This document shows, piece after piece, positions 37,911 to 42,113 of a stretch of DNA of 64,000 nt. The translations under genes and the position numbers were made by a program. The stretch lies in assembly GCF_044324785.1 (NCBI RefSeq), contig NZ_CP172127.1; one strand, written 5' to 3'. The notes under the pieces were generated by a model, which did no database searches, was not told the DNA's origin, and was given only the letters and a program-made list of their open reading frames with translations. The DNA is from Escherichia coli (lineage in GTDB: Bacteria; Pseudomonadota; Gammaproteobacteria; Enterobacterales; Enterobacteriaceae). Each line of letters begins with the position of its first letter. Position 1 is the stretch's first letter.

Positions 37911-38404
37911 TGCTGGCCCCACAAACAGATTTCACGCTCAATCTCACGACGAGTCATGAGACCTTTCCATTGCTTACCGCCAGCATATGTCCAGCGACGT
38001 AGTTGATCACATGCGCCTTTGATATCGCCCTGGTTTATTTTGCGAAGAAGCGTCGATGTTCTGAAATTGCCAGCACCCACGTTGTAAACGAATGAGTAAA
38101 GAGCGCCGCGCGTTGTTTCCGGTATATCGACTTTGATGTACGGGTTAATTTGTCTGGCGACAGTGGCAAGGTCTTTATTCAAGAGTGCTTTGCATTCTGC
38201 TTTGGTATACGTTTTACCGAGCATGATGTCTTTTCCTGTATGCCCGTGACATACAGTCCATACACCAACAATATCTTTGTATGGTATGTAGCTGACACCT
38301 TCCAGACCATCGTTACCACTTGGGCCAGTGATTAACACTGATGCTATAGCAATTGCTCCGCCACCAATAGCAGCAGCAACGGCTTTTCGTAATGATGGAG
38401 GCAT
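37907..38404 (-). CDS. R: Endolysin with N-terminal signal-anchor-release domain (T4-lysozyme-like, phage 21 R / RrrD type)
   Basis: 165-aa ORF; Gly/Ala-rich hydrophobic N-terminus ([20 protein letters not shown]) then lysozyme fold; matches recalled DLP12 RrrD. Confidence 0.85.
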
Positions 38405-38619
38405 TATTCACCTCTCGCAGCCTTGCGCTTATCTTCTTTAATCTTGAAATAAAGGTTTGTCAGGTACGTCAGCAGGCCAAATACCAGGCTACCCAGCACA
38501 CCTATTGCTGCCCACTGTGAGGGCGTGACTTTATCGAGCAGCTGTAAAAACCAGTAGCCAGCACTGCCTGCGGAGGTGCCGTAGGCAATGCCCGTTGTTA
38601 ACTTATCCATGGATTTCAT
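38404..38619 (-). CDS. S: Pinholin (S21 / EssD type)
   Basis: 71-aa ORF with two TM segments directly upstream of the endolysin; stop/start overlap with R. Confidence 0.8.
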
Positions 38620-38807
38620 AGCCTCACCTCCGCAAATAACGGATGGTGTACACGGTTCGGAACGAAGAGGAAAGGTATAGAAGTTACATTAGCGTAAGGC
38701 TTGAACATCTATTCAAAAAGAAAAACGCCAGCGATTATTCTGGCGTAGCTGAAAGCATCATACAATTATCAAATACGAAAAATACAAAATCATTAAAACG
38801 CATCACG

Positions 38808-39537
38808 TTACATCATGTCTTTTTCTAAAAAAAATCTTGATAAATATTGATGGGGAGGAACACCAAAATATCTTCTGAAAACACTTACAAAATATGACGT
38901 GTTTTCATAACCGCATATCTCAGCAACTTTTCCAACAGAATATAAATTGTAGCTTAATAACCTTTCCGCCATCACCATTCGCTCTTCAAGAATTAATTTA
39001 CTAAATGATAAGCCTTCGTGCTTTAATTTTCTTTTTAACAGACTTTCACTCAGATACAGTCTTGAAGATATATCACAAAGTCTCCATGCTGCAGATATAT
39101 CCGTGTGAATAATAGCCTTAACTTTACTTCCTAAACTATTAAGACATCCAAATAAAAACTTTGCACTATTTTCTCTGAAGATAAGATAGCAAGACATGCA
39201 AGTGATATTTGATTTCTAACAAAATCCACAGTTCTGCCATCACAATTCAAGCATGCAATCAAGTTCTTTAACAATGAAAAATCTTCACATTCCACCATCA
39301 AGTATGCCGGATAAAACCTTCTTACAGAAAAAGGTGAGAGTGTGTTGCTTTTAAAGAAATCATTAACTGTTTTCTCTTCAACATCTACGATCATTACATG
39401 ATCTATATTTGATGAAAAAAATCTTTTAAATTGTAATCAATGAGAACAGCACTTCCTTTTTTAAACAAAATATCTTCTTTACCAATTCGGACATCAAACG
39501 AGTTCAACACCAAAATGATAGAACATATGTATGGCAT
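38808..39537 (-). pseudogene. AraC/XylS-family regulator disrupted by frameshifts (three consecutive ORF pieces)
   Basis: Fragments 39537-39400 (MPYICSIILVLNSFDVRIGKEDILF…, read manually), 39394-39131 and 39197-38808 (C-terminal AraC HTH …CGYENTSYFVSVFRRYFGVPP…) lie in different frames in collinear order; AT-rich. Confidence 0.55.
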
Positions 39538-39888
39538 ATTATCCACCTGATATCATTGGGGTTACACCAGGTAAGTATAGGTGGAAAATCAATATTCGCC
39601 AGTTCAACAATAAGGAAAATCTCATTGCATCACAAGTATAAAATTATGTATTTAACTCACAAAGACAAATTATTAAACCAATCTGTTATATTATATATAG
39701 CTGCGTGGAATCATAATATTATATATTTTGACTGGCATGTTTACCAACTTTAAGTTGCATCTCAATGGTTTCTTCAGCGTAAACAGAGTTTTTATACAAA
39801 CTGACACTCTGGGTATCATAGTGTAGTTTTTACGATTGTAAATATCCTGCATGCAGGAACTCATCCTTTTGGATGATATCGCATACAA

Positions 39889-41040: not shown

Positions 41041-41565
41041 ATGAAGTTATGGCCTGTGTTGACTGGCATTGCACTCTCTTTCACTCTTATAGCATGTAAG
41101 GCCCCGACACCACCTAAAGGTGTGCAGCCGATTACAAATTTTGACGCCAACCGCTACCTCGGAAAATGGTATGAAATAGCTCGCCTCGAGAACCGGTTCG
41201 AACGTGGTCTGGAACAGGTCAGCGCTACTTATGGAAAACGGAACGACGGAGGGATTCGTGTACTTAACCGTGGATACGATCCAACGAAAAATAAATGGAG
41301 CGAGAGCGAAGGTAAAGCATACTTTACTGGAGATACTAAAACTGCAGCGTTGAAGGTTTCGTTTTTTGGCCCCTTCTATGGTGGCTATAATGTAATCAAA
41401 CTGGATGATGAGTATAAGTATGCTCTTGTCAGTGGCCCGAACAGAGAATACCTATGGATTCTGGCAAGGACCCCAACTATTCCAGATAAAGTAAAAGCAG
41501 ACTATGTGCGAACCGCTCAAAAGTTGGGATTCAATGTCAATGAATTATTATGGGTTAAACAATAA
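41041..41565 (+). CDS. Outer-membrane lipocalin (Blc-like lipoprotein)
   Basis: 174-aa ORF with lipobox (LIAC) and lipocalin motifs (…NRYLGKWYEIARL…SFFGPFYGGYNVI…); paralog-level similarity to E. coli Blc. Confidence 0.8.
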   Translation: MKLWPVLTGIALSFTLIACKAPTPPKGVQPITNFDANRYLGKWYEIARLENRFERGLEQVSATYGKRNDGGIRVLNRGYDPTKNKWSESEGKAYFTGDTKTAALKVSFFGPFYGGYNVIKLDDEYKYALVSGPNREYLWILARTPTIPDKVKADYVRTAQKLGFNVNELLWVKQ

Positions 41566-41593: not shown

Positions 41594-41620
41594 AAAAAAA
41601 CCAGCCTTTGGGGAGGCTGG
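41594..41620 (-). terminator. Candidate late terminator tR' (intrinsic, minus strand)
   Basis: Hairpin ccagcc-(8 nt)-ggctgg followed on the minus strand by a 7-T run, about 65 nt downstream of the putative pR'. Confidence 0.45.
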
Positions 41621-41679
41621 CTAAATCAGGAAACAAGCTGTTATATGATAATAACTACGTTGCGATTCTAACATTTAAA

Positions 41680-41708
41680 ATGTTAGACTAATGAGAATCA
41701 GACAGCAA
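41680..41708 (-). promoter_or_regulatory. Candidate late promoter pR' (Q-utilization region)
   Basis: Minus strand TTGCTG-17 nt-TAACAT directly downstream of the Q stop. Confidence 0.35.
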
Positions 41709-41720
41709 CTTTTCCTTTAA

Positions 41721-42113
41721 TTATTTCGAACAATCAGCATCCATCTCCAATCGGAGATCCAACACCATCAGCATACCCTCCACTACGCCCTCAGCTTTCT
41801 GGAGCATCCTGCCAACCCAACAATCAGATCGCCCATGCTTACGTGCAAGCGCCATAAAAGTCATGCCGCCGACATAATAGTCCACCAATAAATCATGCAA
41901 ATCGCTGTTGTTCTTTTTCAGACGGGCCATGCACCCGCAAATGATCATCGCGTCATCGTCACAACATTGCGGGCGAGATTTTACTTTTGAAGGAATTAAT
42001 CCCTTAAAACCGGCGGCAATGGACGACCAGGTCACATCTTCATGATTATTAGCCGCCCACGCTCCCCAACGCTCAAGAACCATCTGAATATCACGCATCA
42101 ACTTACTCCACAA
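41721..42113 (-). CDS. Q: Late-gene antiterminator Q (QuuD / phage 82-type)
   Basis: 130-aa ORF (start may be internal MRDIQM… at 42098) with Cys cluster ([16 protein letters not shown]) in the canonical position upstream of pR' and lysis genes. Confidence 0.7.

Follow-up and report, generated by a model that had tools for sequence, protein, structure and literature searches.

Read in the direction of the minus strand, a stretch of 64,000 nucleotides of Escherichia coli DNA (NCBI RefSeq assembly GCF_044324785.1, contig NZ_CP172127.1; here called the window) carries a prophage nin region, then the gene of a Q antiterminator, a short interval at 41594-41708, a set of cargo genes (a Blc-like lipocalin, a YbgA-family gene and a frameshifted AraC-family gene) and, on the same strand as Q, the late genes holin, lysozyme, Rz, Nu1, terminase A and portal, on to J (Table 1). 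Within the interval a sigma70-like promoter sequence, TTGCTG-17-TAACAT, follows Q directly, and behind it stands a hairpin that runs into seven T, just as the original prediction had it when it proposed a compact late regulatory unit here, an interpretation that is supported and holds in outline. It is very probable that the interval contains the late promoter pR' and the terminator tR' of a lambdoid prophage. The best overall explanation, and one that we marginally favour as correct, is that the whole, with pR', a Q-loading region and tR', is the late regulatory module of a DLP12-related lambda-like prophage, and the detailed anatomy in which TAACAT is the −10 and TAGAAT a pause element seems evenly poised between right and wrong. 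The device is a known one, the ordinary lambdoid late-gene switch, of which the version in the window is uncharacterised; judged by its sequence it is compact like the module of phage 21 and has its terminator in common with Shiga-toxin phages.

The −35 hexamer begins 12 nt past the Q stop codon, a 17-nt spacer leads to TAACAT, and the pair is kept as TTGCTG-17-TAAYRT in every relative. Scored with an approximate information-weighted sigma70 matrix, which is a ranking tool only, the candidate reaches 9.65 bits, which among all positions of the window, both strands counted, is the 99.92th percentile, and no minus-strand candidate between Q and the hairpin scores higher. The same matrix places the mapped or annotated pR' first in lambda (15.1 bits), in a phage-21-type module (10.7 bits) and in VT2-Sakai/933W, the nearest relative to have been characterised, where the mapped pR', TTTACG-16-TATCAT, scores exactly as the window candidate does. 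The foot of the hairpin lies 58-60 nt past the −10 and 52-54 nt past the predicted start, so the terminated RNA is predicted to be about 80 nt (79-81 nt); the distance of about 65 nt from promoter to terminator given originally is thus rough only and does not equal the length of the predicted RNA.

The hairpin reads AGCCAGCCT-CCCCAA-AGGCTGGTT, with 7-9 G+C-rich base pairs, and its core, CCAGCCT/AGGCTGG (7 bp, 6-nt loop), folds at −11.3 kcal/mol. A terminator scan ranks it best of four sites in 5 kb (9 pairs, 5 of them G-C); four sites found against 3.7 expected from shuffles is no enrichment, and so the pattern alone is not evidence for a terminator, and it is conservation and homology that count. 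The hairpin sequence is unchanged in 47 viral contigs, in 12 phage genomes and in all variants examined, the T run varying from 6 to 9, and the predicted 85-nt RNA folds better than 200 of 200 shuffles (z = −3.6). The strongest single evidence that the hairpin is tR' is that it aligns, together with the preceding 25 nt, with the second terminator downstream of pR' in VT2-Sakai (score 43 against 17.9 +/- 2.5 for 500 shuffles). That terminator lies 258 nt from the start implied by TTTACG-16-TATCAT, and Sy et al. (PMC7547250) give the same 258 nt as the pR'-tR' distance and showed that this tR' forms the 3' end of the small RNA StxS. On the plus strand the hairpin folds at −13.3 kcal/mol and is followed by CTAAATCAGG, without a U tract, on which ground a bidirectional terminator serving the lipocalin gene was rejected.

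That the upstream gene is indeed a Q, as originally named, is clear from a match of residues 1-118 to all 118 positions of Pfam PF06530 (173 bits, E 2e-51) and from a match of residues 8-87 to the solved Q21 (PDB chains 6P18/6JNX; E 2e-8 with a single sequence, 1e-11 with a profile). PF06530 was named the Q21/Q933W family by Yin, Kaelber and Ebright, who describe three Q families, that of Q82 among them, as mutually unrelated in sequence (bioRxiv 10.1101/651190). The Pfam scan of the window Q gave PF06530 and nothing else, and so by its sequence this Q belongs to the Q21/Q933W family and not to that of phage 82: of the phage-82/21-type unit first proposed, the 21 half stands and the 82 half falls away. 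Across residues 1-120 it is 78-84% identical to the Q of 933W/VT2-Sakai and to QuuD of K-12, and the differences cluster in a predicted helix-turn-helix (residues 84-98), where the predicted recognition helix reads CWVGRM against TCIGKR in 933W and GYIGKR in QuuD.

Between promoter and terminator, at a place which the original description passes over, stands TGtTAGAAT-CGC, in which a near-consensus −10-like hexamer with an extended −10 TG runs straight into a G+C triplet, as in a textbook sigma-dependent pause element; it is a candidate pause or Q-loading element at which polymerase would pause at about +20. It follows the −10 by 15 bp, and comparable elements follow at 13 bp in the phage-21-type module (TAAGCT-GCC) and at 18 bp in VT2-Sakai (TACATT-GCC); in both of these relatives GCC stands directly after the hexamer, and in the window CGC. 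Bird et al. (PMC5001585) describe GGG behind the lambda pause element and GCC behind that of phage 82, the latter having an extended −10 TG as well. On this reading TTGCTG-17-TAACAT would direct sigma70 RNA polymerase to start near 41672-41674 (minus strand), TGtTAGAAT-CGC, 15 bp on, would then be bound again by sigma region 2, and the polymerase would pause near +20; without Q it would go on to terminate at the hairpin and U7 and release the RNA of about 80 nt. Accumulated Q would bind DNA beside the paused complex, join the polymerase and make it resistant to terminators, and the late transcript would then read through tR', pass antisense across the lipocalin gene, the YbgA-family gene and the broken AraC-family gene and through a terminator at 38746-38725, and reach the lysis genes and then about 20 kb of head and tail genes. 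Overall the module would act as the expression switch for lysis and virion genes that span about 24 kb. The sequence elements, the family of Q, the terminator homology and the order of the genes are shown directly, and the start site, the pause, the Q site and the dependence on Q are inferred. Promoter and terminator, as read from the sequence, are assigned fairly firmly, the pause and Q sites tentatively.

The module is widespread. Among complete E. coli genomes (n = 5426) about 750 carry the TAACAT backbone of the window (lineage 1), and a second lineage, TAATGT ... TAGAAT, comprises Lambda_2E9, 1H12 and the ev phages together with 110 genomes, all identical over the 57 nt tested, so that versions of the module occur in roughly one in six complete genomes. 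Phages IdasGreatGrand, Lambda_2E9, 1H12 and the ev series have the same module between Q and the lysis genes, and among phage records 12 relatives alone resemble the interval. The exact window allele is found in 3 of the approximately 750 backbone genomes, the other approximately 746 differing at one position.

Table 1. Features of the late regulatory interval and its surroundings, in window coordinates.
Feature	Position	Strand	Basis or remark
Q antiterminator gene, 125 amino acids, Q21/Q933W family	41721-42098	−	stop codon TAA at 41723-41721
Candidate −35, TTGCTG	41703-41708	−	direct reading; invariant in 16/16 module sequence variants; part of the top-scoring promoter
Candidate −10, TAACAT	41680-41685	−	TAACAT in lineage 1, TAATGT in the Lambda_2E9 lineage; always TAnnnT
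Perfect 21-bp palindrome, TCTAACATTT-T-AAATGTTAGA	41667-41687		covers the −10 hexamer together with the −10-like element
Predicted transcription start, A41674, T41673 or G41672	41672-41674	−	placed 6-8 nt past the −10
Candidate sigma-dependent pause (Q-loading) element, TGtTAGAAT-CGC	41662-41673	−	extended −10-like element plus G+C triplet, 15 bp after the −10
Alternative pause element, overlapping −10-like hexamer pair TATTATCAT	41645-41653	−	at least one TAnnnT in every variant
Segment homologous to the StxS RNA 3' end (TAACAGC ... hairpin ... T run)	41594-41643	−	local alignment; MAFFT
Probable tR' intrinsic terminator (hairpin 41622-41599, U tract 41600-41594)	41594-41622	−	terminator scan, folding, conservation
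Blc-like lipocalin gene	41041-41565	+	Pfam Lipocalin_2, E 7e-44; carries a lipocalin annotation in phages and genomes
Second intrinsic terminator, immediately before the holin gene	38725-38746	−	7 pairs, 5 of them G-C
Holin gene (phage 21 S family), with which the lysis genes of the late operon begin	38404-38619	−	Pfam PF04971, E 2e-35; 96% identity to K-12 essD
Lambda-like prophage, complete-looking	about 17000-57500	−	full-length relative of defective K-12 DLP12

Several findings weigh against the late-module reading, or against parts of it. TTGCTG and TAACAT agree with consensus at 7 of 12 positions only, and a scan at 9 of 12 omits them; in K-12 DLP12 the regulatory region of the lysis cassette that has been studied lies upstream of essD and not beside quuD. 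The second base of TAGAAT, A41669, is rare, since about 99% of the backbone genomes read TGGAAT (a call which for the approximately 746 genomes is read across from sequenced relatives), as do every lineage-1 viral contig and phage IdasGreatGrand, and TGGAAT is without the base needed by sigma region 2. The carriers of TGGAAT include contigs of 41-47 kb and a sequenced phage genome, which leaves two possibilities: this Q can do without the element, or the pause element that it needs is elsewhere. Nor was the Q-binding site identified, in that neither a TGAGCA-like sequence nor a clear direct repeat was found in the interval. In phage 21 the Q-binding element consists of two TGAGCA subsites just upstream of TAAGCT (Shi et al., PMC6606751), and that geometry, measured from TAGAAT, picks out TCTCAT and GTCTAA; these two do not repeat each other, and one includes a position (41695) where near-identical relatives have any of the four bases. 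The sole Q-site candidate is a weak internal repeat, TTNRAAT twice over (41679-41673 and 41671-41665).

Cassettes behind other Q genes give little further guidance. Enrichment of k-mers in nine cassettes behind the Q helix DCWVGR(M/L)LQKAEG gave none above the A+T-rich background, TAGAAT recurs in 2 of the 8 other same-helix cassettes (P = 0.11, not significant), and no shared promoter-pause grammar across the same-helix cassettes was significant. Among the distant Q relatives phiP27, APSE-2, 716R3, WGPS2 and Stx1_14744 no common grammar was found, and in phiP27 a TGCAAT-GGG falls inside a hairpin loop.

The variation in and around the promoter has some features of its own. At the spacer position 41695 the window has C, lineage 1 G or T and the Lambda_2E9 lineage A, which there yields TATCAT, identical to the −10 hexamer of 933W. 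The palindrome has one mismatch in the TGGAAT relatives and is gone in the Lambda_2E9 lineage, and since it is not kept there a required operator was rejected. On the plus strand (41660-41689) the palindrome also forms TTGCGA-18-TGtTAGACT (10.6 bits, 99.97th percentile), a candidate antisense promoter into Q that recalls lambda paQ and that lineage 1 preserves but the Lambda_2E9 lineage does not.

The rival that survives best, a doubtful one which nonetheless fits the natural alleles, keeps the TAACAT promoter and has Q bind the two TTNRAAT repeats, with their 8-bp period, while sigma pauses at TATTAT(CAT), 41653-41645, at about +37 and just before tR', so that TAGAAT or TGGAAT would belong to the Q site, with no role as a sigma element. 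Every element so assigned is intact in all lineages, the majority TGGAAT phages included, and the distal hexamers are conserved across variants as TATTAT, TATGAT or TACCAT. The repeats TTTAAAT and TTAGAAT start 26 and 18 bp before TATTAT, which is exactly the TGAGCA-to-TAAGCT geometry of phage 21 (PMC6606751), they agree at 5 of 7 positions (by our own estimate about p = 0.03 for that register), and both lineage-specific single-nucleotide changes hit the non-matching third position of a repeat. However TATTAT is followed by CAT and TATCAT by ATA, and so neither has the G+C triplet found behind the other pause elements in the comparison; lambda (+16) and phage 82 (+25) both pause earlier than +37, and for 82Q an RNA beyond about 30 nt makes NusA an inhibitor (PMC4914094), which weighs against so late a pause. 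The repeat itself is weak and was not found in the other cassettes behind the same Q helix.

A wider proposal, in our view unlikely, is that this Q subfamily loads without a canonical pause element or at an unusually distal one (near +21 to +30), or that the A/G difference tunes lysis switching, and that in addition the RNA of about 80 nt may be StxS-like with targets other than rpoS. Taken by itself, and compatible with the late-module reading, the suggestion that this RNA is made constantly in lysogens and also acts in trans as an Hfq-binding small RNA like StxS is distinctly unlikely. Its 3' 50 nt are homologous to StxS, the predicted RNA has a 5' stem-loop, a U-rich linker and the terminator with U7 (with the fold z-score given above), the block GAATCGCAACGTAGTTAT is nearly invariant among variants, and StxS itself is a precedent for pR'-tR' by-products turning into regulators (PMC7547250). 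Against it the StxS seed that activates rpoS is not kept, the predicted duplex with the leader site being worth −5.8 kcal/mol against −23.4 for StxS and −26.4 for DsrA, the RNA taken whole pairs with the rpoS leader no better than shuffles do, and similarity to StxS upstream of TAACAGC is not significant; StxS-like control of rpoS was rejected on the duplex energy and the shuffle test, and nothing in the analysis supports a trans-acting role. Rfam gives no family above threshold for the RNA, with RF02278 below it over the terminator (28.6 bits against 50), and Rfam 15 has no StxS family. The real StxS region (VT2-Sakai, our sequence L084, 2102-2218) gives a weak match to RprA (28 bits, E 0.54), which fits the shared rpoS seed. 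IpeX, considered as a possible pR' RNA of DLP12, was rejected as an analogue because a review places it in the porin (nmpC) transcript.

Very unlikely is a layout in the manner of 933W, in which the working promoter of the window is the extended −10 TGtTAGAAT, with a start near G41658 and TATTAT/TATCAT at +6 to +14 as the pause element. TGnTAGAAT is near the extended −10 consensus and scores 7.3 bits without any −35, TAGAAT and TATTAT are 17 bp apart where −10 and pause element in VT2-Sakai are 18 bp apart, a strong promoter (TTGAAA-16-TAGAAT, 13.6 bits) in one cassette with the same Q helix (L139) has TAGAAT as its −10, and the terminated RNA would be about 65 nt, the figure first given. Yet TGGAAT destroys such a promoter in about 99% of backbone genomes and in IdasGreatGrand, so it is not the general late promoter of the module; it is also without a −35 and scores below TAACAT, and the recurrence of TAGAAT in other cassettes is, as noted, not significant. 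Highly improbable, finally, is a Q-responsive late promoter outside the interval, either overlapping the Q stop (TGGAGA-18-AATAAT, 41749-41720, the sole 9 of 12 consensus match near the end of Q, reading TGaGATAAT in the Lambda_2E9 lineage) or further down, as is reported for the K-12 DLP12 lysis cassette, with the hairpin a 3'-end structure common with the lipocalin gene: the pR' of 933W does overlap the end of Q, the K-12 lysis-operon reporter fragment does lie upstream of essD and the hairpin does fold on the plus strand, but AATAAT has 6.9 bits against 9.65 for TAACAT and would leave all −10-like elements at least 29 nt from the start, the plus strand is without a U tract, the homologous Stx-phage hairpin is a proven tR' though no lipocalin gene is there, the terminator directly upstream of holin means that a terminator-resistant polymerase must originate further upstream, and from 41739 to 38630 there is no homology to the K-12 cassette.

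Returning to the late module with TAACAT as its −10, a close parallel in layout is phage 21 (structures 6P18, 6P19 and 6JNX), with a Q of the same family, the candidate promoter a few bases past the Q stop, a −10-like element with a G+C triplet 13-15 bp on and the terminator within 100 nt. The compactness originally supposed for such units is real, the T run ending about 46 nt past +1 in a Q21-type Stx2 phage, as against the terminated RNA of about 80 nt predicted here. The window Q is 28% identical to Q21 overall and has a plain helix-turn-helix where Q21 has a long inter-helix loop, the TGAGCA repeats of phage 21 have no counterpart in the interval, and the −35 is weak, TTGCTG against TTGACA.

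With 933W and VT2-Sakai the window shares the closely related Q, the terminator with its 25 nt and the equal promoter scores. In those phages, however, pR' overlaps the end of a longer Q (144 amino acids) and tR' is the 258 nt off already described, with another hairpin in between, whereas the candidate promoter in the window directly precedes the StxS-like 3' part; tRNAs and stx stand where the window has its lipocalin, YbgA-family and AraC-family cargo, and the rpoS seed is in StxS and not in the window RNA. A Q closely related to the one behind Shiga-toxin release here faces a promoter region that is a different, uncharacterised cassette. The extra hairpin of VT2-Sakai (L084, 1983-2005), with its T7, lies about 27-49 nt past the pR' start and ahead of the tR' that ends StxS, and so the Stx-phage late region also opens with a compact terminator.

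The likeness to lambda is one of logic, namely a promoter that is always active, a sigma-dependent pause close to it, an intrinsic terminator and Q read-through to S, R, Rz and the structural genes. In lambda Q is of an unrelated family (PF03589), +1 is the first position of the pause element, and the 6S RNA has 194 nt. Lambda also needs a −35-like element which is missing from other lambdoid late promoters (PMC6606751). Phage 82, compared by its published description, has a pause element near TATAAT with the extended −10 TG and GCC triplet (PMC5001585), and TGtTAGAAT-CGC reads alike; the phage 82 element, however, is at +9 to +14 with the pause at +25, the window element would be at about +4 to +10, and the published account of the Q families sees no sequence relationship between Q82 and Q21.

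K-12 DLP12 shares, at 89% DNA identity, ybcN, ninE, ybcO, rusA, ylcG and the first approximately 120 codons of Q and, at 96%, essD, rrrD and rzpD, but the stretch in between is taken up there by another cassette (the quuD tail, IS5 and nmpC). Homology ends at 41739, inside Q near codon 120, and restarts at 38630, 11 nt before the holin start codon, and these break points indicate that the Q tail, pR' and the cargo genes form one exchangeable cassette. Only short islands align between the two cassettes (ATATAACAG and TTAG...TTCTAA), and the K-12 hairpin there has no U tract. In viral contigs at least nine different cassettes stand behind a Q N-terminal part with the same recognition helix.

Defining the start, the pause and the Q site would give the Q21 family a third worked example, and the TAGAAT and TGGAAT alleles allow a test of how far a pause element and a Q site may drift. 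The points of some interest are where the pause and Q sites lie, given the natural alleles, and the cassette-like exchange of the region, neither of which would surprise a specialist.

The prophage around the module, related to DLP12 and lambda-like, looks intact from its sequence. Its early part includes genes for integrase, a cI-like repressor, O and P, and the DLP12-like nin region that follows contains emrE, a serine recombinase (ybcK in K-12 terms), ybcL, ybcM, ybcN, ninE, ybcO, rusA and ylcG. The lipocalin gene, on the plus strand, is convergent with the putative pR' and antisense to the predicted late transcript, as originally noted for the Blc-like gene, and for annotation this means that the lipocalin and its neighbours are to be seen as cargo inside the late operon, the lipocalin gene presumably being read antisense in lytic growth. 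The second terminator (ACGCCAG...CTGGCGT, then TTTTTCTTTTT) sits between the AraC-family gene and holin, and so the lysis genes are shielded by two terminators, both of which the late transcript must read through. The AraC-family gene (38808-39546, minus strand) is broken by two single-base deletions in T runs, judged against the intact 243-codon gene of phage Lambda_2E9, and its equivalent in strain BEC1-S17-ESBL-07 is likewise marked as frameshifted by RefSeq.

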